Below, in pieces: positions 1,980 to 18,506 of a DNA stretch of 64,000 bases. The stretch lies in the NCBI RefSeq assembly GCF_030384885.1, contig NZ_CP128613.1. The stretch is one strand, 5' to 3'. Within the stretch, counting starts at the first letter, position 1; each line of letters begins with the position of its first letter. Source of the stretch: Escherichia coli (GTDB taxonomy: Bacteria > Pseudomonadota > Gammaproteobacteria > Enterobacterales > Enterobacteriaceae). Under the pieces are notes generated by a model. The model did not search any database. It was not told where the DNA came from and was given only the letters and a program-made list of their open reading frames with translations. A program made the position numbers and the translations under genes.

Positions 1980-1991
1980 CCATCAACGAAA

Positions 1992-2016
1992 AAGCCCACA
2001 TCTGTGGGCTTTCATA
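1992..2016 (+). terminator. Rho-independent terminator downstream of autotransporter gene
   Basis: Hairpin gcccaca-tct-gtgggc followed by a short T-rich tract. Confidence 0.45.
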
Positions 2017-2139
2017 TCACCAGGAGCCGCGGCTCCTTTGCGTATCCTTTTATGTCTCCTCACCGTCTGGTCGGTGTCTTGCTGAGACTTCTAACTTCCT
2101 GTTTTTGTTGGTGTTGTCCTTACACCGTCCAATCATGAT

Positions 2140-2183
2140 TGGTGGGCTGGCGGGAGTTGAACCCGCGTCCGAAATTCCTACAT
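2140..2183. repeat. Direct repeat of the ssrA 3' end (att site of the ssrA-integrated island)
   Basis: tggtgggctggcgggagttgaacccgcgtccgaaattcctacat matches the terminal 44 nt of ssrA at 16498-16541 with one mismatch. Confidence 0.85.
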
Positions 2184-2310
2184 ACTAATAATATATCTTT
2201 AAAATCAAAATATTCTATTATTTATCAATGTATTATGTTTATGTGGTGTTAAGGGGTTTATATGGGTTTTAGTTCTCTGCCGCCAAAATGCCGCCAAAAA
2301 AATTGAATGG

Positions 2311-2336
2311 TAAAACGCCAGTTCGTTGAACTGGCG
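2311..2336 (-). terminator. Rho-independent terminator of the dcd-like/thyX-like operon
   Basis: Perfect 9-bp stem cgccagttc/gaactggcg with 3-nt loop, followed on the minus strand by a T run; lies just 3' of the thyX-like stop. Confidence 0.6.
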
Positions 2337-2346
2337 AGATCTTGTC

Positions 2347-3114
2347 TTATTGTTTTATTATCTTAACGTGCGCCGTTCCTCCATTGACTTTTTCGAAATC
2401 TTGGAACAAGGCAGGGGCATCTTGAGTTACAATATCGTAAAGTTTTTCTGAAACTGTTCTCATTTCATAGTCACCCTGTATTGCTCCTCTCATTTCGAAG
2501 AAGTGTCGAATTGCGCGAGCATTTGCTGTGACGATTATTTTTGTCTCGGTTGCATTAGGCAATATAGAGCGAGAAGCGCTTCTTAAGGCCCGCATTTTTT
2601 CTTTTTTGTTCTCATACGATTGGTTTTCACGGATTTTTTTCAAGGATTGCTTATAAAAATCCAGACTACTTTCAATATGTTGGCACCATGACTTAAACAA
2701 TTCTGGGTCATTTTTTACTTCTATAGGGGCTACGAATTCAGCATCGGATTCATCATGATACTGTTGGGATAACTGGCTATATGAAAAACCAGCTCTATGC
2801 CGAACTAGCTGGTGTGTAAATGCACGAGATACCCCAGTAATTAAAAAGGTCCAGTTCAAATGTTCTAAGACACTTTCATGCCCTTGAATAATTAAATTGT
2901 TGATATATTGACTTGTAGTCCGTGGAGACTGCTTATCCTCTCCAAAAGACATATAACATAGCCTGCCAGCGGCCTCTACCAGAAGCTCAGCTTCGGTCGC
3001 CTGCCCTTTGCGAACCCATTGCAATGATGATGTGTTTAAAAAATCATCAAAAACATTACTTTCAAATGAAGGGTGTGATATGCATTTTACTGATAAATCA
3101 GAGATTTTTATCAT
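2347..3114 (-). CDS. ThyX-like flavin-dependent thymidylate synthase homolog (divergent)
   Basis: 255 aa. Contains EHLNWTF...HQLVRHRAGFSYSQLSQQY, matching the ThyX signature (RHR followed by a conserved Ser) as recalled from Thermotoga ThyX, plus an N-terminal AAGRLCYMSF block. It has a one-residue insertion after RHR and Gln where the SxRY Arg is expected. Start codon lies 2 nt after the upstream gene's stop; SD gggag. Confidence 0.7.
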   Translation of the reverse strand: MIKISDLSVKCISHPSFESNVFDDFLNTSSLQWVRKGQATEAELLVEAAGRLCYMSFGEDKQSPRTTSQYINNLIIQGHESVLEHLNWTFLITGVSRAFTHQLVRHRAGFSYSQLSQQYHDESDAEFVAPIEVKNDPELFKSWCQHIESSLDFYKQSLKKIRENQSYENKKEKMRALRSASRSILPNATETKIIVTANARAIRHFFEMRGAIQGDYEMRTVSEKLYDIVTQDAPALFQDFEKVNGGTAHVKIIKQ

Positions 3115-3116
3115 TT

Positions 3117-3902
3117 TTACTCCCGTATAGCTTTTGGGGTGCTTACTTTAGCATCAACCTTTGGTTCGTTTGATTTAGCATTTTTTAGTAATTCAACGGT
3201 GCTTTTTAGGCTATTTATTTCATTTTGTTGAACTTTTATTGTTAATTCAAGATCTTTTGTACTACTGACATTACTGGATACTATTTGAAATAAGAAAGGA
3301 ATTGCTAGGGTTATCAACGTTAGCATTAAGGCTGCTATCGCAATTATAAAGCCAGTTTTTTTCGCAATGATTTTATTGATTTCTTTCGGAAGTCGTTTAT
3401 CAAGTCCTGCAAAATCCTTTCCCATTCTAGAAAGTTGATCATCATCCAATTTATTTACGATTTTTCCTTGGTAACCTTTAGTCGGTATTATTGTTTTAAA
3501 TAATAACATTCGGGCTACTGCTGAATTTTGTGTCAATGAGAATGGTTCTTTTGACATATTTACAAGATATATTGAAATTATGCCATTATATCCAGGGTCA
3601 ATATGCCCTGGATTCGTCATGATAATTCCATTTTTTGATAGTGTGTTTCTTGGAAATATTACACCAGCTAAATTTTTTGCAAGTTGGAATTTTTCATTTA
3701 ACTCTAATATTACAGTTTCCCCTGGCATCAGGATATGGTTGTTACGTGTTTTTTTATTGTCTTGACAGTCTGGTATATGTATTGTTTTTACAGAGAGATC
3801 AATGCTTGCAGATTGAACTTTAAATGTTCCATTTAATACCGTTAATGGATCAAAAATGTTGCCTCGCTGAATTTCATCATTGATTTCTATTTCAGACAGC
3901 AT
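3117..3902 (-). CDS. dCTP deaminase/dUTPase-fold protein with C-terminal transmembrane helix and coiled-coil tail
   Basis: 261 aa. N-terminal ~140 aa carry Dcd-family motifs (SIDLSV; LMPGETVILE; GHIDPGYNGIISIYLVN; LTQNSAVARMLLF), comparable to the E. coli Dcd IDPGW-G region. The C-terminal ~110 aa contain a 22-residue hydrophobic segment (GFIIAIAALMLTLITLAIPFLF) followed by a heptad-like polar stretch. Confidence 0.7.
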   Translation of the reverse strand: MLSEIEINDEIQRGNIFDPLTVLNGTFKVQSASIDLSVKTIHIPDCQDNKKTRNNHILMPGETVILELNEKFQLAKNLAGVIFPRNTLSKNGIIMTNPGHIDPGYNGIISIYLVNMSKEPFSLTQNSAVARMLLFKTIIPTKGYQGKIVNKLDDDQLSRMGKDFAGLDKRLPKEINKIIAKKTGFIIAIAALMLTLITLAIPFLFQIVSSNVSSTKDLELTIKVQQNEINSLKSTVELLKNAKSNEPKVDAKVSTPKAIRE

Positions 3903-3928
3903 ATCAAAATCCTATATTTGTAAAGTTA

Positions 3929-4942
3929 TTATAAATTAGCCAGAGGGTTTTTTATTACTGCATCTTCAAGATGCTCTGGGGAAAAATGTGCATAAATCAT
4001 AGTCATTTTTATATCAGAGTGGCCTAAAATATCTCGTAAAACCAAAATATTACCACCATTCATCATAAAATGGCTGGCGAATGTATGGCGCAGAACGTGA
4101 GTGCATTGGCCCTCTGGTAACTCAATGTCAGCTCGCTTTACTGCTCGTTCAAAGGCTTTTCTGCAAGGAGTGAATAACTTCCCTCTGTTCTTAGGGAGTT
4201 CGTCATACAGATCCTGAGATATCGGCACGGTACGGTTTTTCTTGCCCTTAGTCTTGGTATAGGTGATCCGGTATTTCGATAACTGATGGCCCTGCAGATT
4301 TTCGGCTTCACTCCAGCGCGCGCCGGTGGCCAGGCATATTTTTGTAATTAAAAGTAGACTGGGGCTTTGAGAATCAGCACAGGCATCCAGCAGACGTTTA
4401 ATTTCTTCCGGGGTCAGGAACGACAGTTCACCCTCAGCAATTTTAAATGTTGGCAGCCCGGCAAGCGGATTGGGGGCTGACCAGTGGCCCAACTTTTTCA
4501 GTGTGCCAAAAACAGATGATAGGTTGCGCTGTTCAAGGTTTACAGTGCGGGGCTTAACGGGCGACATAAGCGTGCCCTCTTCATTTCGCACTTCACCTTT
4601 TAGCCGCGCTTCTCGGTATTTAGTAAAATCACCGGCTGTCAGCTCTGAGGCGATGGGATCGCCTAGACCATTACAGATAATTCTAAGTTTCGCCATGAGG
4701 CGCTTGGGGTCTGCGAGTGTTTGACCATACAGGGAATACCACTGCTCAATTAATTCTGATAGGTGTCGCCGATCTTCCTTTTCCCCCAGCCATGGCTTTT
4801 TGTTCACTTCTTCCATTGTGAAGCTTTCAAAAGCAATGGCTTCGCCTTTCGTAGCAAATTGCTTACGCACGCGCTTGCCATTGCGTCCATGGGGATAGCA
4901 CTCGCACAACCATTTACCGTTTGGCTGTTTTCTGACAGTCAT
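3929..4942 (-). CDS. int: Phage integrase, tyrosine recombinase (P2/186-type)
   Basis: 337 aa. Catalytic residues in conserved context: ATGARWSE (Arg), HVLRHTF (His-x-x-Arg), MIYAHF (Tyr). Directly downstream of the cI-like gene as in the coliphage 186 lysogeny operon. Confidence 0.85.
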   Translation of the reverse strand: MTVRKQPNGKWLCECYPHGRNGKRVRKQFATKGEAIAFESFTMEEVNKKPWLGEKEDRRHLSELIEQWYSLYGQTLADPKRLMAKLRIICNGLGDPIASELTAGDFTKYREARLKGEVRNEEGTLMSPVKPRTVNLEQRNLSSVFGTLKKLGHWSAPNPLAGLPTFKIAEGELSFLTPEEIKRLLDACADSQSPSLLLITKICLATGARWSEAENLQGHQLSKYRITYTKTKGKKNRTVPISQDLYDELPKNRGKLFTPCRKAFERAVKRADIELPEGQCTHVLRHTFASHFMMNGGNILVLRDILGHSDIKMTMIYAHFSPEHLEDAVIKNPLANL

Positions 4943-4944
4943 GT

Positions 4945-5577
4945 TTAGATACTCTTTATTACTTTGACTGCACGCCCAATAACTTCCACATCATCAGTAG
5001 AGCACTCGAAAGACGCTTCATCTTGATTTACTACAATCTTATTGCCGGGAATCCGCATGATTTTTGCAACAATAATCATTCCATCAATATTGATAAGCCA
5101 GAATCCATTGCTGACCTGTTTAATTGATTTATCGATGAGATAACAATTAGTAGGGGTTTCTAAGAACATCAATTCTTCATAATCTGCAGGTAATATGCTG
5201 TGGTCTAGGAAAATCTCTTCATCAATACTGAGTTGTCCATTCTCCAGGGTTCCTTTAGGAATAGCTGGAGTTATGAGTTTGGATAACGGTTTAATTGCTT
5301 GTTTGTTCTCATTATGAGAACTTTTCTCAGGCTCAGCTCCTCCTTTCATGCTTCCCTGTCCTGTAGCTAACCAAAGCAACGAAACACCGGTTTCTAGTGC
5401 GCACTGAATTATCCAGTCAGCAGGAAAGCTGTCACGTAACACTCTGTTTGCCATAGTGCTTTTTGAGACATTCAGGTGCTCGCTTAATGCCTGCTTAGTT
5501 GTGAATCCATAAGCCTCAAGCAGCCTTTCAATAGCTGCCTTACCTCCCGTATCGGAACCCATTCTGATGTTTAACAT
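4945..5577 (-). CDS. cI: Phage CI-type repressor (186 cI-like)
   Basis: N-terminal HTH region (LEAYGF...CALETGVSLLWLATGQG) resembles the coliphage 186 CI N-terminal domain; divergent from the apl-like gene. Confidence 0.65.
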   Translation of the reverse strand: MLNIRMGSDTGGKAAIERLLEAYGFTTKQALSEHLNVSKSTMANRVLRDSFPADWIIQCALETGVSLLWLATGQGSMKGGAEPEKSSHNENKQAIKPLSKLITPAIPKGTLENGQLSIDEEIFLDHSILPADYEELMFLETPTNCYLIDKSIKQVSNGFWLINIDGMIIVAKIMRIPGNKIVVNQDEASFECSTDDVEVIGRAVKVIKSI

Positions 5578-5698
5578 TGGTGATCTCCATTTGACAATCT
5601 TGAATCAAGATCGTAATGTCTTCATGTCTCTTGATGTGAGAGTTTAAGAGACGGGCTAAAACGAACTAACACGCACACAAAGTAAGAGATACTGCACT

Positions 5699-5941
5699 AT
5701 GAGTACTGATATTTCAATTCGTGTACCAAAAGAGATGGCTACGCCTGCAGAGTTCGCAGAGTGGGAGGGTATTTCCCGCGGCTCTGTTTACCAAAAAATT
5801 CACCATGGTCAACTTGCTAAGTACATGGTCAAGAAAGAAAAAAACAAAGGCCGCGTAAGCCTGCGTTATCTGATGTACAAAACCGATCAGGTCCGTGAAT
5901 CCCTCGGTCATTCCAACTTCCGCGTCATTGTTGGTAAGTAA
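5699..5941 (+). CDS. Apl/Cox-like small DNA-binding protein (excisionase/early repressor)
   Basis: 80-aa basic protein, first gene of the rightward early operon divergent from cI, by synteny with 186 apl / P2 cox. Confidence 0.5.
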   Translation: MSTDISIRVPKEMATPAEFAEWEGISRGSVYQKIHHGQLAKYMVKKEKNKGRVSLRYLMYKTDQVRESLGHSNFRVIVGK

Positions 5942-5973
5942 GTTCAATTATGGGAACTTTCTAAGGGGGCACC

Positions 5974-6483
5974 ATGTTTGATTACAAGATTTCCAAACAT
6001 CCGCATTTCGATGAAGCCTGTAGGGCTTTTGCACTGCGCCACAACCTGGTGCAACTGGCAGAACGTGCAGGCATGAATGTGCAGATTCTGCGGAACAAGC
6101 TGAACCCAGCTCAACCTCATTTATTAACTGCACCAGAAATCTGGTTGCTTACCGATCTGACTGAAGATTCAACGCTGGTAGATGGTTTTCTGGCTCAGAT
6201 TCACTGCCTGCCATGTGTACCGATTAATGAGGTGGCAAAAGAGAAACTGCCACATTACGTCATGAGTGCAACCGCAGAGATCGGGCGTGTCGCGGCAGGT
6301 GCGGTTTCTGGCGATGTAAAAACCAGTGCAGGCCGTCGTGATGCGATCAGCAGCATTAACTCTGTTACACGACTGATGGCGCTGGCTGCTGTTTCATTGC
6401 AGGCCCGTTTACAGGCTAATCCTGCGATGGCGAGTGCGGTTGATACCGTGACTGGCCTCGGTGCTTCATTCGGTTTGCTGTGA
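5974..6483 (+). CDS. cII: CII-like lysogeny establishment regulator (186-type)
   Basis: 169 aa, positioned after the apl-like gene; size and position match 186 CII as recalled. Confidence 0.5.
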
Positions 6484-6490
6484 GGTGCTT

Positions 6491-6787
6491 ATGCTGATGA
6501 AAGAACCATCATTTGCATCGCTCCTGGTAAAACAAAGTCCGGCAATGCACTACGGTCACGGCTGGATCATGGGTGAGGATGGTAAACGCTGGCATCCGTA
6601 CCGTTCACAAGATGAATTGCTGTCTGAATTGACCACGAGGAAACGGAGAAAGTCCAAATGTATGCGGCAGAAAATAAAGTGGTTTATCACTTTCGTTACA
6701 GAGGGGAGAATTATTCAGTACCTGAAGATGATTTGCTCTGTTGCTATCCGTCGTTGTCGGGCGATGGTAGCTACTTTTTCACGCTAA
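6491..6787 (+). CDS. Hypothetical prophage early protein
   Basis: ORF with SD gaggtg 4 nt upstream of ATG at 6491; overlaps the next ORF out of frame, so one of the two may be spurious. Confidence 0.3.
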   Translation: MLMKEPSFASLLVKQSPAMHYGHGWIMGEDGKRWHPYRSQDELLSELTTRKRRKSKCMRQKIKWFITFVTEGRIIQYLKMICSVAIRRCRAMVATFSR

Positions 6788-6882
6788 AGGATGGAACCTT
6801 TATACGTGGTGAAAAAGTACAAGAAGTGATGCGTATAAAGACATCACCTCTTGAACGTTATCGGCGAAATATTTATCGGTAA
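6658..6882 (+). CDS. Hypothetical prophage early protein
   Basis: 74-aa ORF with SD ggag upstream. Confidence 0.35.
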   Translation: MYAAENKVVYHFRYRGENYSVPEDDLLCCYPSLSGDGSYFFTLKDGTFIRGEKVQEVMRIKTSPLERYRRNIYR

Positions 6883-7121
6883 CGATCTATCAGTGTCTGT
6901 ATCAGATGAGTGAATTCTTGTTGTTTAACCGAACCTAAAGGAAGTTTGTTTAATTCTTCGCGGAGGAGCTCAAAAAATGCTGATTGATTTGCTGAGTCAG
7001 TTCGAAATAAGGAGTGGATCAGACCTGAAACAAGAATTCGTTGAACAGCAACCTCATCGCGAAGACTGGAGATCTCGTTTTCAAGTTGCTCTATACGCTC
7101 TCTTTCAACCGGGTTCAACAT
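6873..7121 (-). CDS. Hypothetical small coiled-coil protein, antisense to the early operon
   Basis: 82-aa ORF with heptad-like ERIEQLENEISSLRDEVAVQR; its orientation is opposite to the surrounding early genes. Confidence 0.3.
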   Translation of the reverse strand: MLNPVERERIEQLENEISSLRDEVAVQRILVSGLIHSLFRTDSANQSAFFELLREELNKLPLGSVKQQEFTHLIQTLIDRYR

Positions 7122-7202
7122 TGATGATTCCTTCTAGCTATCAATATGTTGGTAATGGATCATATCAAAAATTTTTTAGTAGATGTGTTGTGGGATGCAT
7201 AA

Positions 7203-7544
7203 ATGGCTATTGAAGGCACTGCGGCGACTGTTCCATTAAGCCCCGGTGAACGCCTGAATGGACTTAATCACATTGCGGAGTTAAGGGCGAAAGTTTTTGG
7301 CCTGAATATTGAGTCAGAGCTTGAGCGGTTTATTAAAGATATGCGTGATTCACGGGATATTAATAGCGAACAAAATAAACGGGCACTGGCTGCCATATTC
7401 TTTATGGCAAAAATTCCAGCTGAACGTCATAGCATCAGCATTAATGAGCTGACCACTGACGAAAAGCGGGAGTTGATTAAAGCAATGAATCATTTTCGTG
7501 CAGTGGTGAGCTTATTTCCCAGACGGCTAACCATGCCGAATTAA
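7203..7544 (+). CDS. Hypothetical prophage early protein
   Basis: 113-aa ORF in the early operon. Confidence 0.4.
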   Translation: MAIEGTAATVPLSPGERLNGLNHIAELRAKVFGLNIESELERFIKDMRDSRDINSEQNKRALAAIFFMAKIPAERHSISINELTTDEKRELIKAMNHFRAVVSLFPRRLTMPN

Positions 7545-7611
7545 CCAACTAATGAAATTAATGGCGTAAACCCGCCGGGCATCCCTTTATCTAAATTCAG
7601 GAGAATTGATT

Positions 7612-7845
7612 ATGCGTAATATTGAAACCCTCTCGACCAAAACCGGACCGGATGACGCAGGGCTTAATATTTTACTGACAGAGGCTCGTCTGGAAGAACG
7701 CCGGGCAAGGGCTGAAGCAATGGCAGCTCGCCTTGATAGCCTGGCGTGTCATATCACATCCCGCCAGCTAACCCACGTCGAAGCGGCAGAACTGCTTCGT
7801 GTGACTGCTGAAGCAATCCAGAACGAAGCGCAGGAGATCCACTGA
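7612..7845 (+). CDS. Hypothetical prophage early protein
   Basis: ATG at 7612 preceded by SD aggaga; 77 aa. Confidence 0.4.
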   Translation: MRNIETLSTKTGPDDAGLNILLTEARLEERRARAEAMAARLDSLACHITSRQLTHVEAAELLRVTAEAIQNEAQEIH

Positions 7846-8072
7846 TGGCTGATGCAATGGATCTCGTACAGCAGCGCGTTGAAGAAGAACGCCAACGCCA
7901 TATCCGTGCTGCCCGTGCCAAAACGCCGGGCGTGTCCCGCGTGCTTTGCATTGAGTGTGAAGCGCCAATTCCGCCAGCACGCCGCCGTGCCATTCCGGGT
8001 GTGCAGCTTTGCATTACCTGTCAGGAAATCGCAGAGCTGAAAGGCAAACATTACAACGGAGGTGCTGTATGA
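7845..8072 (+). CDS. TraR/DksA-family C4 zinc-finger protein (phage)
   Basis: CIECEAPIPPARRRAIPGVQLCITC: two CxxC pairs with the spacing typical of TraR/DksA zinc fingers, common in P2/186-like early regions. Confidence 0.65.
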   Translation: MADAMDLVQQRVEEERQRHIRAARAKTPGVSRVLCIECEAPIPPARRRAIPGVQLCITCQEIAELKGKHYNGGAV

Positions 8073-8926
8073 GCACCATCCTGAAATGGGCGGGAAATAA
8101 AACTGCCATAATGTCCGAACTGAAAAAACATCTTCCTGCTGGCCCGCGACTGGTTGAACCTTTCGCGGGTTCCTGTGCTGTGATGATGGAGACGGATTAT
8201 CCCAGCTATCTGGTTGCGGATATTAATCCTGATTTAATCAACCTCTATAAAAAGGTTGCCGCTGATTGTGAATCGTTTATATCTCGCGCCAGAGTTTTAT
8301 TTGAGATCGCAAACAGGGAGGTGGCTTATTACAACATAAGGCAGGAGTTTAATTACTCAACTGAAATTACTGATTTCATGAAAGCGGTATATTTCCTGTA
8401 TCTCAATCGTCACGGTTACCGTGGTTTATGTCGCTATAACAAGAGCGGGCATTTCAACATTCCCTACGGTAATTATAAAAATCCGTATTTCCCTGAAAAA
8501 GAAATTCGCGCATTTGCAGAAAAGGCCCAGCGAGCAACGTTTATCTGCGCCAGCTTTGATGAAACGCTGGCGATGTTGAAGGCGGGGGATGTGGTGTATT
8601 GCGATCCGCCGTATGACGGTACGTTTTCCGGCTATCACACTGACGGCTTCACTGAAGATGACCAGTATCACCTGGCATCTGTTCTTGAACATCGGTCATC
8701 AGAAGGACATCCGGTCATTGTTTCTAACAGTGACACATCCCTGATCCGTTCGCTGTATCGCAATTTTACTCACCACTACATCAAGGCAAAACGCAGCATC
8801 GGTGTGGCAGCTGGCGAGGGTAAATCAGCAACAGAAATCATTGCTGTTTCCGGGCCGCGCTGCTGGGTGGGATTTGATTATTCGCGTGGCGTGGATAGTT
8901 CTGCCGTGTACGGAGTACGTGCATGA
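8069..8926 (+). CDS. dam: DNA adenine methyltransferase (Dam-like, phage-encoded)
   Basis: N-terminal [11 protein letters not shown]...EPFAGS (AdoMet-binding motif) and the catalytic DPPY motif (VYCDPPYDG); start overlaps the stop of the upstream ORF. Confidence 0.8.
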
Positions 8927-11337
8927 GTCATGCCGATATGAACAACTGCTGCGGCTTTAACGAAGCTGCCGCATCGTTCTCATGGAACAGCCCGAAAAAG
9001 GCCATTAACCCTTATCTGGACCCGGCGGAAGTTGCGCCGGTTTCTGCGCTTTCAAACCTGATCACTCTGTACGCTACTGATAACGAGCAGGAACAACTGC
9101 GCCGCGAGGCACTGAGTGATCAGGTCTGGGAGCGTTATTTCTTTAATGAATCCCGTGATCCTGTCCAACGCGAAATGGAGCAGGATAAGCTCATTAGCCG
9201 GGCAAAGATGGCGCATGAGCAGCAGCGTTTTAATCCAGACATGGTCATTCTGACTGACGTCAACGCCCAGCCTTCCCATATCAGCAAGCCGCTGATGCAA
9301 CGTATTGAATATTTCAGCAGCCTGGGCAGGCCAAAGGCTTATTCCCGCTATTTGCGTGAGACGATTAAGCCATGTCTGGAACGACTGGAGCATGTACGCG
9401 ACAGCCAGCTATCTGCATCTTTTCGTTTTATGGCAAGCCATGAAGGGCTGGACGGTCTGCTGATCCTGCCTGAAATGAGTCAGGATCAGGTGAAACGCCT
9501 GTCTACCCTTGTCGCTGCGCATATGAGCATGTGTCTTGATGCCGCTTGTGGTGATTTGTACGCCTCCGATGATGTTAAGCCAGAAGAAATCCGCAAGACA
9601 TGGGAAAAGGTGGCTGCAGAAACCCTGCGACTGGATGTCATACCGCCTGCGTTTGAGCAACTCCGCCGGAAAAGAAACCGCCGCAAACCTGTGCCTTATG
9701 AACTCATTCCGGGTTCGCTGGCGCGTATGCTGTGCGCCGACTGGTGGTATCGGAAATTATGGAAGATACGTTGCGAATGGCGGGAAGAGCAGTTGCGTGC
9801 TGTCTGCCTGGTCAGCAAAAAAGCATCTCCCTATGTCAGCTATGAAGCCGTGATGCATAAACGTGAGCAGCGCCGTAAGTCGCTGGAGTTTTTCCGTTCT
9901 CATGAACTGGTGAACGAAGACGGCGACACGCTGAACATGGAGGATGTGGTAAACACCAGCAGCAGCAACCCGGCGCATCGCCGCAACGAGATGATGGCCT
10001 GTGTTAAAGGCCTAGAGCTTATCGCGGAAATGCGTGGTGACTGCGCCGTTTTCTACACCATCACCTGTCCGTCACGTTTCCATTCCACGCTAAATAACGG
10101 CAGGCCAAACCCGACCTGGACCAACGCGACAGTAAGACAAAGCAGCGATTATCTGGTCGGCATGTTTGCTGCATTTCGTAAGGCTATGCACAAAGCCGGG
10201 TTGCGCTGGTATGGCGTGCGGGTGGCTGAGCCGCATCATGACGGCACAGTTCACTGGCACCTGTTGTGTTTCATGCGCAAAAAAGACCGCCGCGCCATTA
10301 CTGCATTGTTGCGTAAGTTTGCCATCCGTGAAGACCGCGAGGAGCTGGGCAATAACACGGGGCCACGCTTTAAGTCTGAGCTGATAAACCCGCGCAAAGG
10401 AACGCCGACAAGCTACATTGCGAAATATATCAGTAAGAATATTGACGGGCGTGGTCTGGCTGGCGAGATCAGTAAGGAAACGGGTAAATCCCTGCGTGAT
10501 AACGCTGAATACGTTAATGCCTGGGCGTCTCTGCATCGTGTTCAGCAATTCCGCTTCTTTGGCATTCCGGGGCGTCAGGCTTACCGTGAACTGCGATTGC
10601 TGGCTGGTCAGGCGGCAAGGCAACAGGGTGACAAAAAAGCAGGTGCGCCGGTACTGGATAACCCGCGCCTTGATGCCATCCTGGCTGCTGCTGATGCTGG
10701 TTGTTTTGCCTCCTACATCATGAAGCAGGGCGGCGTACTGGTTCCCCGCAAATATCACCTCATCAGAACCGCTTATGAAATCAACGAAGAGCCGACCGCC
10801 TATGGCGATCACGGTATTCGTATTTATGGCATCTGGTCACCCATTGCAGAGGGCAAGATCTGCACTCATGCAGTGAAGTGGAAAATGGTTCGTAAGGCCG
10901 TTGACGTTCAGGAGGCGGCAGCCGACCAGGGCGCTTGCGCCCCTTGGACTCGTGGCAATAACTGTCCCCTTGCTGAAAATTTGAACCAACAGGAGAAAGA
11001 TAAATCAGCTGATGGGGACACCAGAACGGACATTACCCGCATGGATGACAAGGAGTTGCACGATTACCTGCACAGTATGAGCAAAAAAGAGCGCCGGGAA
11101 CTGGCTGCAAGGTTACGCCAGGTGAAACCGAAACGGCGTAAAGACTACAAACAGCGAATTACAGACCATCAGCGACAGCAGCTCGTCTATGAACTGAAGT
11201 CCAGGGGATTTGATGGCAGTGAGAAAGAAGTCGATTTGCTCCTTCGCGGTGGCAGTATTCCGTCAGGAGCAGGCCTGCGTATTTTCTATCGGAACCAGCG
11301 TCTGAAGGAAGATGATAAGTGGCGGAACCTGTATTAA
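8923..11337 (+). CDS. Phage replication initiation protein (P2 gpA-like rolling-circle endonuclease)
   Basis: 804 aa. HUH-type motif VHWHLLCF and active-site Tyr block [12 protein letters not shown], as in P2/186 gene A. Confidence 0.8.
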
Positions 11338-11429
11338 TTACGCGGGTTAACAATTCGTGCCCTTAATAATACCAGGCATATCAGGCTGATGAATGTAAAA
11401 AAACGTTTTACATCAGTAAGATTATTATA

Positions 11430-11449
11430 TACTGTAAATATAAACAGTG
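11430..11449 (+). promoter_or_regulatory. LexA (SOS) box upstream of small ORF plus dinI-like gene
   Basis: tactgtaaatataaacagtg: CTGT-N8-ACAG with an AT-rich spacer, ~40 nt upstream of the ATG at 11490. Confidence 0.65.
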
Positions 11450-11489
11450 GTTATCTATACAGTATTGCTTTGGTGTCATAGGAGGAAAG

Positions 11490-11678
11490 ATGCAGGACTA
11501 TTTTTTGGAGTCTTTGAAGCTCCAGCGCATTGATTTTTTTCTTAAGCTTGTAGCGGCTAGTGAGTGTAGTGATGAAGAGAAGGGGCTGGCTCTGCAGTGG
11601 GTTTCTGAACTGACAGATGAACTCATGGCAAAAATCAGAACCCACGAATACAACCGCTCAATGGATGTCATCAGCTGA
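11490..11678 (+). CDS. Hypothetical SOS-regulated small protein (possible Tum-like antirepressor position)
   Basis: 62-aa ORF with SD aggagg, immediately downstream of the LexA box; position analogous to 186 tum, but no recognised sequence similarity. Confidence 0.4.
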   Translation: MQDYFLESLKLQRIDFFLKLVAASECSDEEKGLALQWVSELTDELMAKIRTHEYNRSMDVIS

Positions 11679-11688
11679 GGTGACTTTT

Positions 11689-11922
11689 ATGCGCATTGAA
11701 ATAATGATCGATAAAGAGCAGAAGATTAGCCAGTCTACCCTGGACGCCCTTGAATCCGAGCTTTACCGCAATCTGCGCCCCCTGTATCCCAAAACGGTAA
11801 TCCGTATCCGTAAAGGTAGCTCTAACGGTGTGGAACTGACCGGACTGCAACTGGACGAAGAAAGAAAACAAGTGATGAAAATTATGCAGAAGGTGTGGGA
11901 AGACGACAGCTGGCTGCATTGA
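11689..11922 (+). CDS. DinI-family protein
   Basis: 77 aa, MRIEIMIDK...LDALESEL...KVWEDDSWL parallels E. coli DinI (MRIEVTIAK...IDALAGEL...ETWESADDWF). Confidence 0.7.
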   Translation: MRIEIMIDKEQKISQSTLDALESELYRNLRPLYPKTVIRIRKGSSNGVELTGLQLDEERKQVMKIMQKVWEDDSWLH

Positions 11923-12035
11923 TTTTGTCAATAGACGCTTGTTTTTACTAATCAAAAAGGGTTACATATGAGTGAGAGGCGATGTCAATCAGATATCGCC
12001 TTGTTTTTTGTCAAGAAAAGAATAATAGGCTAAAA

Positions 12036-12713
12036 ATGAAAATTAATAATGTAGCGTTACCAATATCTCTTGCTGTAATCCTAACTGGTTGCGTGCCACA
12101 TGCTTCTAACCGAAATATCACTGCTATTGAAGTGGTGAAGCCTGCTATTGGGCAAAGTGCTACCGCCTACATGGGCGATCCCATTATCACATCTGCTACT
12201 GGATTTAAAACGGACGTACTAGAACTTGGTGCGGCTAATGGTGCATTGTCTTCTATCGCTGCTGGTACATATTGCAGTGAGGGGAATGGAATTTACCGCA
12301 ATTATCATAACCCTCAAGCTGTTGCGTTAAAAAATCTCTATGGGCAAATCGGTAACTATGTTGATTATGTTAGTTACGATGCTGCAAAAAATGAGATATC
12401 ACCGCCAAATGGTACTTCTTATACTGCATCAGAAATTTCTATCAAACGTGTTCCTGATGGGCTGTGTCGAGTTAGTAACTCATTGGTTAAGACTATCGAA
12501 TACAATGGAAATGCAGGCGGTGTAATGAAGTTCACCTATCGTGAATTTGCAAACGATATGGCTCGTGCAGCATTTACAACAGATTTTTCTGTAGATTCTA
12601 AGGGAAGTGACGTTATCGCTTACAAAGGTGCCAAGTTCAAAGTGAACAAGGCTGATAACTCGTCTATTTCTTATACAATTATTTCTGGCTTTGACAAGGC
12701 TGTCACGTTCTAG
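12036..12713 (+). CDS. Prophage-encoded lipoprotein (moron)
   Basis: Signal peptide MKINNVALPISLAVILTGC with lipobox LTGC; the remainder is Ser/Thr/Asn-rich with no recognised domain. Confidence 0.6.
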   Translation: MKINNVALPISLAVILTGCVPHASNRNITAIEVVKPAIGQSATAYMGDPIITSATGFKTDVLELGAANGALSSIAAGTYCSEGNGIYRNYHNPQAVALKNLYGQIGNYVDYVSYDAAKNEISPPNGTSYTASEISIKRVPDGLCRVSNSLVKTIEYNGNAGGVMKFTYREFANDMARAAFTTDFSVDSKGSDVIAYKGAKFKVNKADNSSISYTIISGFDKAVTF

Positions 12714-12805
12714 GTTTCACGCTTACTGAGTATGTTACGATTTTGCACATTCTGCATAAACGCGCATGTCTATGCTGCATGAGATCGCATGATCGTTTGA
12801 GGATC

Positions 12806-12833
12806 TTTTGTGTTAAGGCCCGCCAGTTCTGGC
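12806..12833 (+). terminator. Rho-independent terminator after lipoprotein gene
   Basis: GC-rich stem gcccgcc/ggcgggc followed by tttt. Confidence 0.6.
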
Positions 12834-13038
12834 GGGCTTTTGCGTAGATCATGCAGGTGCATGAAAACCACTACATAAAGCGGGCAGGCGTGGCGGGGAT
12901 ACGAGCGCGCGTTATGACAAATAGATGATTAGCCTGATTTATTCACAGCTGTATAAATGATCACCTTGTAATTAGGTAAGTAATGTCTTCTATTATCATT
13001 GATTTGATAGGATTAATCTGTTTTTTGAGGATTAGAGG

Positions 13039-15375
13039 ATGATTGAAGAGGTAGTTATTGACAAAGTAGGCTCATATAATGGCCCTACTCAGCTTTTACA
13101 TGGGCTTTCTAAATTTAACTATTTATATGGAGCTAATGGTGCAGGTAAAACAACTATAAGTAAAATTATTAATGACCCTGAACAATATCCAACATGTCCG
13201 ATTAAATGGAAAAATAATATATCTTTAATAAGCTACGTATATAATAAAGATTTTGTTGAAAGAAATTTTAGTCAAGATAAAATTAAAGGTGTATTTACCC
13301 TTGGTAGCGATCTTAAGGAGGATGAAGAGAAATTAATATCTCTTGAAGAAGAAAAAAATAAGCTAATAGAATCTATTATAGCAAAGGAAAAGCTAATAGA
13401 TGGTGGTGATAATATATTAGGCGTTGTTAAACAAATCGAAGACCATGAAAAATCTTTTAAAGATTCATGTTGGAAGCAAAAAGTAAAACATGATAATGTG
13501 TTCTCAAAGGCTTTTGAGGGATTAAGGAATAGTAGTGAAAAATTTAAAGCTAGAGTGTTGGCTGAGTATGAAAATAACACATCAGAAGTTTGCTCAATAG
13601 CAGAGCTAATTGAGAAAGCAAAAATTGTTTTTTCTACTGAATTGACATCACATGTATCAATTACAATTCCATCCTTCAATGGGATAGATGATATTTTGAG
13701 TAGGGAGATTTGGAGTGAGCGTATTCTAGGGAAAAAAGACGTTAGTGTTTCAGACTTAATTACAATGCTCAATAACAGTGATTGGGTTAAGGAAGGTTTA
13801 ACATATTTCAGTAAATCTAATCCCAAGTGCCCATTCTGCCAGCAGGATGTAAATGATAATATATTTGATAATCTATCATCATATTTTGATAAAACATATG
13901 AGTTAAAAAAAAGAGAAATCGATGCATTGGTTTTACAATATGAACATCAACTTAATAATATCTTGCAGGCGATAGATGATATAAGGGCGATTAAATCTCC
14001 ATTCATAAATTATGAAGTGTTTGAGGATAAGGCTAAGATAGTATTATCTGAATTAAACAAGAATTTTGAATTGGCAAAAAATAAACGCAATTTTTTAAGT
14101 GAATCAGTTCATTTTAGTGACTTAAGTGAAGTTGTTGATGATTTTATTTCTTTTTTGAATGATTCAAATCTATTGATAGATAATAATAACAAAATACACA
14201 GTAATAGAAAGGTAGAGGCTAGTAATCTTTCTAATCAGATATGGGCATATATCGTAAAGGTGGAGTTAAAGTCTGAAATAACTTCTTACCGTAGCGAATC
14301 TGATAAATTTAATAGGAAGTTACAAGGGCTTAAATCTGGGTTAGAGGAAGACAAAAAGAAGTTAATGTTAAATGCTTCGGCTATTGAGGCAATTGAGTCT
14401 AATAAAACCAGTACTCTTCCAACTATTACAAAAATTAACAAGATTCTGGATTCTTATGGCTTCAAAAATTTTTACTTAAAACCCTCCGAAGATAAAAAGC
14501 ATTATATGATAGTGAGAGATAGTGGAGATAATGCTCGTACAACCCTTAGCGAGGGAGAAAAGACATTTATCACTTTTTTGTATTTTTATAGCCTTGTTAG
14601 AGGGAGTGATAATGCATCAGGTGTTTTAGATGATCGTGTTGTAGTATTTGATGATCCAATTTCAAGTTTAGATAGTGATATTCTGTTTATTGTAAGTTCG
14701 TTGATTAAAGATTTAATGGAGGATGTTCGTAAGGATGAAGGAAATATTAAGCAAATTATATTCCTTACACATAATATTTATTTTCATAAAGAGTTGACTT
14801 TTAATACTAAAAGATCCGGTAATCAAGCAATGAAAGAGGAGACTTTTTGGATTGTAAGGAAAAAAGGGAAGGTCTCATATCTTGAAAAGTGCGAATCAAA
14901 CCCAATAAAAACGTCTTATGATTTGCTCTGGTGCGAATTGAGAAGAACAGATATTAATAATAATACTATACAAAATACAATGCGAAGGATTTTGGAGAAT
15001 TACTTTAAGATATTAGGTGGGATGGATATTAGGAAGCTTGAATGTCATTTTTATGGTGATGAAAAAATCATATTTAAATCTTTAGTGTCATGGATTAATG
15101 ATGGTTCTCATTTTGCAGGTGATGATCTTTATATGAATTTAGATACGGAGTCTGTGCAAAAATATTTAATTGTTTTTCAGAAGATATTTGAGTGTAGTGA
15201 GCATACTGCCCATTACAAAATGATGATGGGTGAGTTTTATAGACCGTTAAATGAGTCACTTCATCTACAAGATGAGTTTGATATTGATGATAGTGCGAAT
15301 GATGAGTATGCTTCGTCAAAAATTGAGATAGAAGATGGAATAAACACATCTCTACATAGTAATACATATTTGTAA
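13039..15375 (+). CDS. RloC/PrrC-like ATPase with CxxC zinc hook (putative anticodon nuclease / abortive-infection protein)
   Basis: 778 aa, very AT-rich. N-terminal Walker A GANGAGKTT; long coiled-coil region containing CPFC; D-loop/Walker B-like VVVFDDPISSLDSD; C-terminal region with RRILENYF and downstream His residues, reminiscent of the PrrC/RloC Arg-Glu-His nuclease motif as recalled. Confidence 0.55.
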   Translation: MIEEVVIDKVGSYNGPTQLLHGLSKFNYLYGANGAGKTTISKIINDPEQYPTCPIKWKNNISLISYVYNKDFVERNFSQDKIKGVFTLGSDLKEDEEKLISLEEEKNKLIESIIAKEKLIDGGDNILGVVKQIEDHEKSFKDSCWKQKVKHDNVFSKAFEGLRNSSEKFKARVLAEYENNTSEVCSIAELIEKAKIVFSTELTSHVSITIPSFNGIDDILSREIWSERILGKKDVSVSDLITMLNNSDWVKEGLTYFSKSNPKCPFCQQDVNDNIFDNLSSYFDKTYELKKREIDALVLQYEHQLNNILQAIDDIRAIKSPFINYEVFEDKAKIVLSELNKNFELAKNKRNFLSESVHFSDLSEVVDDFISFLNDSNLLIDNNNKIHSNRKVEASNLSNQIWAYIVKVELKSEITSYRSESDKFNRKLQGLKSGLEEDKKKLMLNASAIEAIESNKTSTLPTITKINKILDSYGFKNFYLKPSEDKKHYMIVRDSGDNARTTLSEGEKTFITFLYFYSLVRGSDNASGVLDDRVVVFDDPISSLDSDILFIVSSLIKDLMEDVRKDEGNIKQIIFLTHNIYFHKELTFNTKRSGNQAMKEETFWIVRKKGKVSYLEKCESNPIKTSYDLLWCELRRTDINNNTIQNTMRRILENYFKILGGMDIRKLECHFYGDEKIIFKSLVSWINDGSHFAGDDLYMNLDTESVQKYLIVFQKIFECSEHTAHYKMMMGEFYRPLNESLHLQDEFDIDDSANDEYASSKIEIEDGINTSLHSNTYL

Positions 15376-15382
15376 TTTTATT

Positions 15383-15413
15383 GCAATTGCCAGTAGCAAC
15401 AATACGGTACTGG
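15383..15413. terminator. Bidirectional hairpin between convergent ATPase and portal-fragment genes
   Basis: 9-bp perfect inverted repeat ttgccagta...tactggcaa. Confidence 0.4.
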
Positions 15414-15424
15414 CAACTAATATT

Positions 15425-15964
15425 TTAGTTAAGCTCATATGGAGAAAATTCTATAAGTTTCTCCCCGAGCCATGCGTTTATTTCCATAAATCGTTTTTGC
15501 AAAGGAATTAATTCATTTATCACAAAAACCTTACTAGCCTTCTCCACATCCCCAAACCCCCCAACATTATTAGGCATTATCCCCATCATTTGCGGCGGCA
15601 CACGGTGTGCCGCCATCATGTCGTCCCGGCTCACGTTCTTGATATTCAGAAACTCATCCTTCGCCGCGACTTCTGACAACGGGATAATCTGAAGCCCGTC
15701 CTTTTTGCCGTTAGGAGAGTACATAAACAGGTTGCGGAAGTTGCCTGGCCCTTTGGCACTTTTCATTGCGTTGCGGAGGTTGTTCACATCTTCTTGGTTC
15801 TGTGCGGCATCGGTCATGTACATGATGAAACCTGCATGGCTGCCGTTGATGTAATACTTACGGCGGAACAGTGTGGCGGACTCGTTGAGCAGGGCTGACG
15901 GGATGGCAGAGAGATAACCTGGCAGGCCGTAGATCTCCTGGTTGATGTCCGGTTCCGCCCTTAA
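15425..15964 (-). pseudogene. Phage portal-like (P2 gpQ-like) gene fragment, 5'-truncated
   Basis: The reading frame stays open upstream of the first Met to ~15964 and then hits a stop with no start. Orientation and position (leftward, after the replication/cargo region) match P2 Q; the family assignment is from synteny and is tentative. Confidence 0.4.
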
Positions 15965-16153
15965 TCATCTCAACCATGCGTTACAGCTCGATCCCCGCTG
16001 TGGCGTGAAAAAAGACAAACAGCAGCTGGAGCGCAGACTGCGCAATGACAGCCGCTGACAGAACGTGCCCCCGCGCACGGGCGGCACGGGGTGGCGAAAG
16101 GCACAGCCACATCAAAACCCCGTCCACCGCCCTTTATTTCAGGAGAAAGCAGC

Positions 16154-16354
16154 ATGAAGTTTGTTGCGCCAGAACAGGCACCGGAACAGGCGGAAATCAT
16201 CAGAAACACGCCGTTCTGGCCTGATGTGGACCTGTCGGAGTTTCGCAGTGTCATGCGCACTGACGGCACGGTGACGCAGCCGCGTTTAAAGCAGGTTGCG
16301 CTGTCGGCAATTTCGGAGGTCAACGCACCGATACGACCATTTGCATTGATGTAA
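16154..16354 (+). pseudogene. Phage head-completion-like (P2 gpL-like) N-terminal fragment
   Basis: 66-aa ORF with SD aggaga; IIRNTPFWPDVD...PRLKQ...ISEVNA resembles my recollection of the P2 gpL N-terminus; truncated relative to ~170 aa. Confidence 0.3.
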
Positions 16355-16497
16355 ACAAAGTGAAGTTCTTCCATGTGAAACCTCTTTGCATGATTTCAAG
16401 ATGGCGACAGGCAAGATGGACGCAAAAGTCTGTCGCCATTTTGCCGCCACTACCAAAGAAAAAGGGGCTACGCTTTCACGTAACCCCTTGATTTATT

Positions 16498-16860
16498 TGG
16501 TGGAGCTGGCGGGAGTTGAACCCGCGTCCGAAATTCCTACATCCTCGGTACTACATGCTTAGTCAGTCTTTACATTCGCTTGCCAGCTGCGGACGGACAC
16601 GCCACTAACAAACTAGCCTGATTAAGTTTTAACGCTTCAACCCCAGGCAGGGCTTCCACGCGATCTCTTTTGGGTTTGACCTCTCTTGATCCCCGTCCTA
16701 AGAGCGGAGGCTAGGGAGAGAGGGCTCTAAGCAGGTTATTAAGCTGCTAAAGCGTAGTTTTCGTCGTTTGCGACTATTTTTTGCGGCTTTTTACGAGGCC
16801 AACCGCCCCTCGGCATGCACCTTGGGTTTCGCAAATCCCGTCGAATCCAGAATCAGCCCC
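16498..16860 (-). ncRNA. ssrA: tmRNA (SsrA)
   Basis: The reverse complement reads ggggctgattctggattcgacggg...gttcaactcccgccagctccacca, the E. coli tmRNA sequence, 363 nt. Confidence 0.95.
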
Positions 16861-17074
16861 AATGTGTAACGGTAAGTATACCAGATTCATGAGTGCCATG
16901 ACCAGCCTCAATGGCGTTATCGTTAAAGATTTAGCACCCGTGTAGCCTGATATTTATTCGATTAAGCAATGGGATGGCAACATTTGGGTCGGATGTGATA
17001 GCCAATAAGATGTTCATTCGCGCCGCCGGAGAGGGTGGCGCGGTGAGGAACTGGTCAATAATTGGAGTGCAGAT

Positions 17075-17557
17075 TTAACGGTGGGCGTTTTTCATGATAC
17101 GCGCTTTATCCACCTGCCATTCGCGTTCTTTGATGTCTGAACGTTTATCGTGCTGTTTCTTACCTTTAGCGACGCCGATTTTCACTTTGCACCAGGCATT
17201 TTTCCAGTACAGGGAGAGCGCCACTACGGTATAGCCTTCTCGATTGACGCGACCGTACAATGAGTCCAGTTCGCGCTGGTTGAGAAGTAACTTGCGGGTA
17301 CGGGTAGGATCGCACACCACATGCGTGGATGCCACAGCCATTGGCGTGATGTTAGCGCCAAACAGAAATGCTTCTCCATCACGTAGAAGGACGTAGCTGT
17401 CGCTGATATTGGCTTTTCCTGCGCGCAGGGATTTAACCTCCCAGCCTTGCAGGGCAAGTCCCGCTTCGAACTCTTCTTCGATAAAGTATTCGTGACGGGC
17501 GCGCTTGTTAAGCGCGATGGTCGCTGAACCAGGTTTATGTGCTTTTTTCTTCGTCAT
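17075..17557 (-). CDS. smpB: SsrA-binding protein SmpB
   Basis: 160 aa, [28 protein letters not shown]... Confidence 0.95.
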
Positions 17558-17688
17558 AAGCGTCGTGAATCATCGGTAATCTGAAATCGAAAACACCCCA
17601 TATCAATCCTGCGGGGGACAAGGCTCTATCTTAGCATGAACCCGATGTTACCCAGCGCCGGGATAGCGTTTTTTTTACAGCAGGATAA

Positions 17689-18165
17689 ATGATATTATTT
17701 GTTGGATTTTTGTTGATGGAAATTGTTATGCCTCAGATTAGCCGGACCGCACTGGTACCCTACAGCGCGGAGCAAATGTATCAGTTAGTGAATGACGTTC
17801 AGTCTTATCCTCAGTTTTTGCCGGGTTGTACCGGAAGTCGGATTCTGGAGTCCACTCCTGGGCAGATGACCGCGGCGGTAGATGTCTCTAAGGCTGGGAT
17901 CAGCAAAACGTTTACTACCCGCAACCAGTTGACCAGTAACCAAAGTATTCTTATGAATCTGGTGGATGGGCCGTTCAAGAAATTGATCGGTGGATGGAAG
18001 TTTACGCCGCTGAGCCAGGAGGCGTGTCGTATCGAGTTTCATCTCGACTTTGAGTTTACCAATAAGTTGATTGAACTCGCCTTTGGCCGCGTGTTTAAAG
18101 AGCTGGCGGCTAATATGGTCCAGGCTTTTACGGTTCGTGCGAAAGAGGTTTACAGTGCCAGGTAA
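17689..18165 (+). CDS. ratA: Ribosome association toxin RatA (SRPBCC family)
   Basis: 158 aa matching E. coli RatA/YfjG; divergent from smpB. Confidence 0.85.
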
Positions 18166-18445
18166 AATTGCCGTTGAGGTGGCTTATGCTCTACCTGAGA
18201 AGCAGTACCTGCAGCGCGTGACGCTGCAGGAGGGCGCGACGGTTGAAGAAGCTATTCGCACCAGTGGCTTGCTGGAATTGCGTACCGATATCGATTTAAC
18301 TAAAAACAAAGTCGGCATTTACAGCCGTCCGGCAAAACTGAGCGATACCGTGCATGATGGCGATCGGGTGGAGATTTATCGTCCTCTCATTGCCGATCCG
18401 AAAGAGCTTCGCAGGCAACGAGCAGAAAAATCAGCGAATAAATAA
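18155..18445 (+). CDS. ratB: RatB (YfjF)
   Basis: 96 aa from GTG at 18155 with SD gaaagagg; the ORF-track extension upstream overlaps ratA. Confidence 0.7.
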
Positions 18446-18453
18446 CAGACAGA

Positions 18454-18482
18454 AAAAAGGTGCTCATTGAGCACCTTTTTTA
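18454..18482. terminator. Bidirectional terminator between ratB and bamE
   Basis: aaaaaaggtgctc-attg-agcaccttttt hairpin flanked by A and T runs. Confidence 0.7.
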
Positions 18483-18506
18483 ACGTCTTTGAGAGCAACT
18501 TTATTA

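Follow-up and report, generated by a model that had tools for sequence, protein, structure and literature searches.

A recently decayed Fels-2-like prophage in ssrA of Escherichia coli that retains its early region, cos and cargo genes

Introduction

The window analysed here is a stretch of 64,000 nucleotides from Escherichia coli (RefSeq assembly GCF_030384885.1, contig NZ_CP128613.1). An island of about 14.4 kb (14.36 kb, positions 2140-16542) lies in it between two copies of the 3' end of ssrA, the gene for transfer-messenger RNA (tmRNA). As indicated by alignment to intact phages, this island is the remnant of a Felsduovirus prophage, a Fels-2/RE-2010-like member of the P2 family, integrated in ssrA. 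The element is a recently decayed Fels-2-like prophage, a fate that is common and has already been described for these phages. It very probably represents a young and strain-specific remnant, which suffered two deletions and retained the genetic switch, the early genes, the packaging site cos and the cargo genes.

The ssrA locus and the boundaries of the island

The tmRNA gene occupies positions 16498-16860 on the minus strand, as called by ARAGORN and by a full-length Rfam match (295.8 bits). The proximal copy of the attachment site (att) consists of the final 45 nt of this gene (16498-16542) and derives from the phage attP, and a displaced ssrA 3' end of 44 nt (2140-2183) is the distal copy. 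A 44-bp direct repeat of the ssrA 3' end had been predicted to bound the island, and this was confirmed with the correction that the two copies measure 44 and 45 nt. Their sole difference is one base missing from the distal copy (tggtgg-gctgg versus tggtggagctgg), and the missing base is the acceptor-stem U of the tmRNA that pairs with G3. The copies are identical over 38 nt on the inner side of this indel and over only 6 nt on its outer side.

On the ypjA side, positions 1-2153 of the window align with the ssrA locus of strain K-12 at 95.7% identity. The alignment stops in psaA, the 14-nt ssrA remnant of K-12 (25973-25986 of the K-12 locus), which carries the same 1-nt deletion as the distal repeat (2140-2153 compared with 16498-16512). 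On the other side, positions 16496-20000 correspond to ssrA-smpB-ratA-bamE-recN of K-12 at 98.1% identity, and the remaining window outside the island is collinear with K-12. The repeats are a true att boundary, because the K-12 ypjA and smpB flanks restart at them. A tandem duplication or a longer duplicated region, named in the original prediction as the alternative for the copy at 2140-2183, is rejected since the K-12 flanks resume exactly at the repeats. The deletion common to the distal repeat and psaA implies that the site presumably had an earlier occupant.

Directly adjoining ssrA lies phage right-end DNA (16328-16497, minus strand), which contains the rho-independent ssrA terminator at 16462-16489. 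Both the ssrA 3' end in use and its terminator are thus phage-supplied DNA.

The same site is occupied in K-12 by CP4-57, which is likewise defective, bounded by ssrA 3' repeats and located next to ypjA. Its distal repeat is psaA, with the deletion described above, and its defence and toxin genes (abpAB and rnlAB) make defence and toxin cargo a further point of likeness. In contrast, CP4-57 encodes a P4-type integrase, with intA adjoining ssrA whereas the integrase gene of the remnant is distal, and it is 22 kb long and unrelated in gene content to the 14.4-kb remnant.

Phage family, gene order and orientation

By megablast, the island falls among the Fels-2/RE-2010-like phages of the P2 family. 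Two segments are collinear and continuous with RE-2010, namely int-cI-apl-cII-fil (94% nucleotide identity) and DUF5347...dam-A-SOS operon-cos (97%). The best intact reference is a 36.4-kb prophage at ssrA of E. coli MINF_1D, to which positions 12764-15956 (cos, ATPase gene and truncated portal gene) are 99.7% identical. Positions 15948-16327 match its gpM-3'/gpL-5' region at 98.7%, and from 16326 onward the window matches the last phage open reading frame (ORF) adjoining ssrA in MINF_1D.

Several hallmarks of the P2 family are present: a P2-type tyrosine integrase beside an att formed by duplication of the tmRNA 3' end, the rolling-circle endonuclease gpA (phrog_91, E 7e-290) and a P2-type cos core. 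The Q-P and O-N-M-L head operons, the tail operons and ogr, which a functional P2-family phage possesses, are missing. The prediction of a degraded P2/186-family prophage in ssrA is therefore borne out by alignment to intact relatives, and the element can be assigned more precisely to Felsduovirus. The distal position of int had also been placed correctly. It is no oddity, since int lies at the end far from ssrA, with ogr abutting ssrA, in RE-2010, in MINF_1D and in the element of strain TUM12355 described below.

The remnant shares its att site and orientation with the Felsduovirus prophages at ssrA (Salmonella Fels-2, RE-2010/ELPhiS and E. coli MINF_1D). It also shares the order int-cI-apl-cII-fil...dam-A-SOS operon-cos, with core segments of 94-100% nucleotide identity and the same cos, and with the MINF_1D prophage it shares in addition the RloC cargo gene and its 49-bp spacing to the portal gene. 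It differs from them by the loss of 23.4 kb, comprising all head, tail and lysis genes and ogr. At the att-int position, moreover, the remnant has a rare pair of genes for DCD-like and ThyX-like proteins, in contrast to the other single genes found there in RE-2010 and MINF_1D.

Lysogeny module, early region and SOS operon

The early gene products have the same lengths as in intact RE-2010 and MINF_1D (Int 337 residues, CI 210, Apl 80, CII 169, Dam 285 and A 804), and PHROG, NCBIfam and Pfam searches confirm each gene. The int-cI and apl/cII/dam/A regions are accordingly full length, as had been predicted, and so are fil and the SOS operon described below. The P2-type tyrosine integrase (3929-4942, minus strand; phrog_1, E 6e-84) has no internal stops and is 94% identical in amino acids to that of RE-2010 and 94.7% to that of MINF_1D. 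The 186-type immunity repressor CI (4945-5577, minus strand) matches phrog_4 and phrog_34054, with the Pfam domains Phage_CI_repr and CI_C detected on a homologue, and is 100% identical to the repressor of a relative on a viral contig (L021). Its gene is the first of a co-directional chain, cI-int-DCD-thyX, whose members are separated by junctions of 2, 26 and 2 nt.

The genes apl, cII, fil ... dam and A diverge from the switch region in the opposite direction, on the plus strand. The apl/cox-like gene (5699-5941), cII (5974-6483, its product 100% identical to that of RE-2010) and fil (6491-6787) were assigned by PHROG and follow an order that parallels the annotated map of phage 186. Genes for DUF5347, DUF2732 and DksA/TraR-like proteins start at 7203 and belong to a region (7203-11337) that ends with the Dam methylase (8069-8926) and gpA (8923-11337). 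As in P2 and 186, the replication origin is expected to lie within A.

A perfect LexA box (CTGTAAATATAAACAG, 11432-11447, plus strand) lies 43 bp upstream of an SOS operon, in a position that matches p95/LexA of phage 186. The only other such box in this part of the window is just upstream of recN. The operon (11490-11922, plus strand) consists of a 62-residue ORF (phrog_698) and a DinI-like ORF (11692-11922), the latter 42% identical to the C-terminal half of the 186 antirepressor Tum (E 4e-24). The last gene under LexA control, just before cos, encodes a putative lipoprotein of 243 residues (11982-12713, plus strand; phrog_1353) and is followed by a terminator hairpin at 12818-12841; the homologous stretch of RE-2010 is unannotated. 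This protein has no Pfam match and belongs to no PADLOC or NCBIfam family. Equivalence with orf97 of 186, which blocks 186 infection and has the same position and length, was rejected as there is no sequence homology.

Phage 186 (Eganvirus) and the remnant have in common the CI/Apl switch, CII, Fil and gpA. Each also has an SOS operon of the tum type, under LexA control and immediately ahead of cos, and room for a small cargo between attP and int. Phage 186, however, integrates in a tRNA-Ile gene, and its int is expected from the 186 attP map to lie beside the intact tRNA gene, whereas int of the remnant is distal. Furthermore, the place of Tum is taken in the remnant by the 62-residue ORF, with no detectable similarity to Tum, and the DinI-like ORF, and the position of orf97 is held by the unrelated lipoprotein.

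Taken together, the alignments show the retention of a complete 186-type genetic switch and early region and of cos. By analogy with the annotated 186 map, CI would keep the element repressed and confer immunity to homoimmune phages. The genes cI and int and the two cargo genes downstream of them form one chain, probably read from the lysogenic promoter like the lysogenic operon of 186. Upon DNA damage, the LexA-controlled Tum/DinI-like operon would lift repression, Apl and Int would excise the element and gpA would replicate the excised form. On paper, the remnant would thus be SOS-inducible, excisable and replicable, but capable of neither lysis nor particle assembly.

The cos site and the cos-to-portal hotspot

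A 19-nt cohesive end, GGCGTGGCGGGGATACGAG, is predicted at 12887-12905 on the plus strand, inside a conserved P2/P4 core at about 12855-12911. The exact P2 cos pattern, allowing up to three mismatches, had no match in the window or in RE-2010, and the site was located by reading the gap between A and the cargo and then aligning it to the ends of P2 and P4. It is collinear with the core of about 55 bp, TGCAT(T/G)AAAACC...AAGCGGGC(G/A)^GGCG(A/T)GGCGGGGA...^CGCGC. The site is identical in MINF_1D, RE-2010 and TUM12355, and the region, which is 100% identical to Fels-2 over 148 nt, is present in 58 phage records; the record of phage Cartapus opens with this stretch and annotates it as the cos site. 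In all those phage records homology ends 6-9 nt past cos, where a hypervariable hotspot starts, which corresponds to the cos-proximal hotspot of Rousset et al.

The ATPase gene begins 135 bp downstream of cos, and this cargo occupies the normal cos-to-portal hotspot. Its stop (15375) is separated from that of the portal fragment (15425) by a gap of 49 bp, which is identical in the intact MINF_1D prophage and contains no cos. The original prediction had recognized the short gap and the absence of a cos-like sequence there, and both observations stand. The inference about cos that was drawn from them does not, as cos is retained on the other side of the cargo. Because cargo is normally found between cos and portal, the short distance from cargo to portal is no sign of decay. 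Most of the gap is occupied by a 9-bp inverted repeat (15387-15416, TTGCCAGTA ... TACTGGCAA), which is conserved in MINF_1D and, placed between the convergent ATPase and portal genes, may be a bidirectional terminator.

Cargo genes

Three AT-rich blocks (29-40% GC, compared with about 50-54% in the phage core) are located at variable loci of the P2 family, and all their ORFs are intact, in agreement with the predicted retention of cargo. The simplest block is an insertion of 540 bp relative to RE-2010, between fil and DUF5347 (6660-7201). It carries two small convergent ORFs, at 6658-6882 (plus strand, 74 residues, phrog_4312) and 6873-7121 (minus strand, 82 residues, phrog_26925), and its position agrees with the minor 'integrase-primase' hotspot of a 2026 preprint.

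The ATPase of the cos-to-portal block (13039-15375, plus strand, 778 residues) is a predicted anticodon nuclease of the RloC family. It matches the PADLOC model PDC-S06 (E 1.5e-266), aligns end to end with Pfam AAA_13 and matches the PrrC model over residues 459-703, in its C-terminal third (E 2.5e-11). RloC is known from Geobacillus kaustophilus (Davidov & Kaufmann 2008), and all the published sequence features that define it, i.e. the ABC motifs, the zinc-hook insert and the triad, are found in the ATPase. They comprise a Walker A motif (G31-T38), a CX2C zinc hook (C264-C267, CPFC) in a long helical insert, the signature LSEGE (503-507), a Walker B motif (VVVFDDP, 534-540) and the triad R649-X3-E653-X37-S690-H691, which falls within the pattern Arg-X3-Glu-X36-52-His and has a Ser before the His. 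Unlike the Geobacillus protein, that of the remnant is encoded in a phage hotspot and is predicted from sequence, with the PADLOC status of a candidate (PDC-S06). It is 100% identical in amino acids to the copy in the intact MINF_1D prophage. On sensing DNA damage or phage, it would cut tRNA and abort infection.

The block between att and int consists of two genes on the minus strand. The first product (2347-3114) resembles flavin-dependent thymidylate synthases, with 154.8 bits against TIGR02170 (cut-off 87.9). It contains the motif RHRAGFSYSQLSQQY, in which the RHRx7S signature (RHR...S) is present. In place of the canonical S-x-R-Y, exemplified by SQRY in Mycobacterium tuberculosis ThyX (3gwc), it has SQQY, i.e. 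Gln for Arg, and all partner genes whose recovered sequence includes this region likewise encode SQQY. The second product (3117-3902, 261 residues) has a DCD/dUTPase fold according to Pfam and belongs to phrog_1663, with a transmembrane helix and a coiled coil at its C-terminus. Dcd has a catalytic Glu (E138 in the E. coli enzyme) that follows the IDPG motif; this residue is Tyr in the protein of the remnant, and in all 48 of the aligned DCD-like homologues it is replaced by Tyr, Cys or Thr. Likewise, the score against the dCTP deaminase model TIGR02274 (56 bits) lies below the cut-off of 92.8. The invariant motifs of the DCD-like family are TNPGH-DPG, NM and DF...R.

A profile search with the DCD-like protein returned 476 clusters (50% identity) at E <= 1e-30, and homologues occur in many Enterobacterales, Shewanella and Pseudomonas. 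At 24 of about 27 DCD-like loci with enough sequence a ThyX partner was found, each with RHR(A/V/I)GF(S/A)(Y/F)SQLSQQY. The set of loci includes 23 from species-representative genomes of Proteobacteria, Acidobacteria, Verrucomicrobia, Mycobacterium and others. Homologues of the pair were found by protein-pattern scans, a nucleotide search of INPHARED phages with the thyX cassette having given no match. Several diverged Felsduoviruses carry the pair between att and int, and the portal gene of one of these phages is intact; the 2026 preprint describes this position as a minor hotspot. Elsewhere, it lies in an integrative and conjugative element of Citrobacter koseri, in a GmrSD/AAA_15 neighbourhood and, in Pseudomonas aeruginosa, between a 1708-residue helicase and an nSTAND protein. 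In each of these settings, the DCD-like gene is followed by a ThyX gene. At further loci, the genes nearby encode a methyl-directed restriction enzyme of type II, a type III methyltransferase accompanied by a UvrD/GajB-like helicase, or conjugation functions, and some are plain housekeeping genes. Between phage lineages both genes are under strong purifying selection (dN/dS 0.05). A protein of 611 residues (P0186) was considered as a ThyX-DCD fusion and rejected, its N-terminal 345 residues being of low complexity and without the ThyX motif.

Neither protein matches any PADLOC model, and no description of the pair was found in PADLOC, NCBIfam 2026 or the searchable literature. The combination of a DCD/dUTPase fold with a ThyX-family partner recalls the nucleotide-depletion defence by dCTP deaminases (Tal et al. 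2022) as well as canonical Dcd-ThyX metabolism. The pair differs from both in that its DCD-like protein has no catalytic Glu, bears a membrane anchor and is without a PADLOC match, and in the Gln for Arg of ThyX. It presumably acts on pyrimidine deoxynucleotides, and a role in defence or in the nucleotide pool is suggested by association only. We tentatively propose, as an idea that may well prove wrong, that the two genes form an undescribed, widespread anti-phage or nucleotide-pool-rewiring system acting on these substrates.

Loss of the late genes

Compared with the MINF_1D prophage, the island has undergone two deletions, of 5,572 and 17,803 bp, which together extend from the middle of the portal gene to next to ssrA. 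The first (junction at 15948-15956) joins the mid-portal sequence to the end of gpM, at the microhomology TCCGGTTCC/TCCGGCTTCC, i.e. TCCGG(C)TTCC. In the second (16326-16327), gpL is cut at approximately codon 58 and fused to the right end, with a microhomology of 2-4 nt. The DNA lost there begins with the remainder of L, includes the lysis and tail genes, D and ogr, and reaches into the last phage ORF. The alignment shows the loss to have occurred by two illegitimate deletions at short microhomologies.

Three gene fragments mark these events. The portal gene (gpQ) is reduced to approximately its last 177 codons (15425-15956, minus strand), matching PHROG 68 over positions 165-339 of 344 and TIGR01540 with E 6.6e-70. 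A 3' stub of the small terminase gene gpM (15957-16059, plus strand) is recognizable by its match to MINF_1D. The head completion gene gpL is represented by about 58 codons of its 5' end (16154-16327, plus strand; phrog_71 positions 3-64 of 158), and its ORF continues through the second junction to a stop at 16354. The portal and gpL fragments had been placed correctly in the original prediction, in which they were the only two morphogenesis genes left; the gpM stub had been missed.

Besides half of the portal gene, the deletions took the genes for both terminase subunits, the scaffold and the capsid, those for lysis and for the whole tail, and the late activator ogr. As had been supposed, the element is unable to form particles. 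Particle formation and lysis are impossible because the structural, lysis and tail genes are deleted, and not because cos is absent.

Distribution and age of the decay

The distribution of the remnant was surveyed in 5426 complete E. coli genomes, using a 591-bp probe that spans both junctions and a coverage of at least 80%. None of these genomes contains both deletion junctions, and a single one, TUM12355, contains the thyX cassette. The retained proteins that were compared are identical or nearly identical to those of close relatives, including intact phages. The decay therefore appears recent, and the remnant strain-specific, and no selection after decay can be read from these proteins.

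TUM12355 harbours a sister remnant (NZ_CP134376.1, 1223938-1252027), the closest relative, with a left arm 99.7% identical to that of the island and with other deletions. This element has lost dam and the 5' portion of A, contains a fusion of portal and tape-measure genes, has a frameshift in apl and a truncated fil, whereas T', U, D and ogr and the thyX, DCD-like and RloC cargo are kept. The TUM12355 remnant is arranged in tandem with a second island, carrying genes for a P4-type integrase, a recombinase and ParB, beyond a middle att copy. This strain documents that elements at ssrA have decayed repeatedly and independently, and that they can be stacked there.

Additionally, a 9.9-kb metagenome contig of IMG/VR (3300028453_000039) is 99.99% identical to positions 1781-9902 of the window, ypjA flank included. 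It appears to be an independent sampling of the same lineage, covering a segment that ends short of the deletion junctions.

Weighing the explanations

The continuity with RE-2010 and MINF_1D, the two junctions and the survey all fit a young remnant of a Fels-2/RE-2010-like phage. Some points weigh against this explanation or against its details. The deletion junctions themselves were found only in this window. Excision, replication, expression and anti-phage activity of the remnant are predictions from its sequence. Promoter assignments rest on analogy with 186, and a consensus promoter scan performed no better than shuffled sequences (28 sites compared with 31.6 expected). The 62-residue ORF, considered as the N-terminus of Tum, did not align with the N-terminus of 186 Tum and was rejected as such.

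A different explanation concerns the persistence of the element, which might be due mainly to the phage-supplied tmRNA 3' end and terminator. In the distal att copy, as in psaA next to ypjA in K-12, the acceptor-stem U is missing. Identity extends over 38 nt inward of this indel and over 6 nt outward, a crossover is therefore expected on the inner side, and the most likely product of excision would be a defective ssrA. Since any recombination between the two copies would yield an end without this U, clean loss of the element would be disfavoured and counter-selected regardless of cargo. That the terminator in use (16462-16489) is phage DNA agrees with this idea, as does CP4-57, whose excision reportedly inactivates ssrA in K-12. 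However, the inner crossover is an expectation from the lengths of identity and not from a mapped Int crossover in this family, and tmRNA is not essential in E. coli. Moreover, such a mechanism accounts for the retention of the att ends and not for that of the genes between them, where DNA was freely lost, as is evident from the deletions. We regard this explanation as rather doubtful.

The original prediction had proposed a domesticated defence island, in which selection kept the lysogeny module and the cargo for the benefit of the host after the phage became defective. All cargo ORFs are indeed intact while the late genes are gone, the independently decayed element of TUM12355 keeps the same thyX, DCD-like and RloC cargo, and according to the 2026 preprint it is a general pattern that defective P2-like elements carry conserved defence genes. 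Domestication would nevertheless predict a shared architecture across diverged strains, and no junction was found in the genomes surveyed and the thyX cassette in just one. The near-identity of the retained proteins to those of relatives leaves no time for selection to become readable, and in TUM12355 it is the lysogeny and early module (apl, fil, dam and the 5' part of A) that is decaying. Two examples cannot separate selection from chance. Domestication finds no support here and is unlikely.

Least convincing is a helper-dependent, satellite-like element that excises, replicates and is packaged by a co-infecting Felsduovirus, spreading its defence cargo. All functions up to packaging are full length (int, apl, gpA with the origin, and cos), intact phages share cos and 100 bp of its upstream arm without a difference, and P2-family terminases are known from published work to package the unrelated satellite P4 via the shared cos core. 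Yet the idea is very improbable: the tested ORFs belong by PHROG to standard P2-family early genes or uncharacterised families, with no helper-manipulating genes of the sid/psu/delta/epsilon type; at 14.4 kb, about 40% of a full genome, only multimers would be expected to fill a head; CI of the resident element would shut off any homoimmune helper; and spread predicts copies elsewhere, of which other complete genomes contain none. Of the features of P4-like satellites and phage-inducible chromosomal islands, such as helper-exploitation genes and an own primase-type replicon, only cos is shared.

Other features of the window

Two segments outside the island are absent from K-12. Between grpE and yfjD, a segment of about 750 bp contains a highly acidic ORF of 213 residues (22371-23012, minus strand), for which no NCBIfam match was found. 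Between bamD and raiA, an insertion of about 810 bp carries a truncated IS4-family transposase gene (36084-36863, minus strand; NF033592, E 6.6e-35), of which the first half only is present.

Significance

A defective P2-family prophage with defence cargo is one more case of a pattern that has been surveyed at scale, and matters little alone. Its comparison with intact relatives corrects the placement of cos and of the hypervariable hotspot in Fels-2-like phages, and the rare DCD-like/ThyX(SQQY) cassette offers a concrete candidate for a new system, defensive or auxiliary, that is directed at nucleotides. With its predicted SOS-induced excision and replication and its cos, the remnant would be a natural test case for the mobilization of defective prophages by relatives, and it would also be suited to testing whether excision breaks ssrA.

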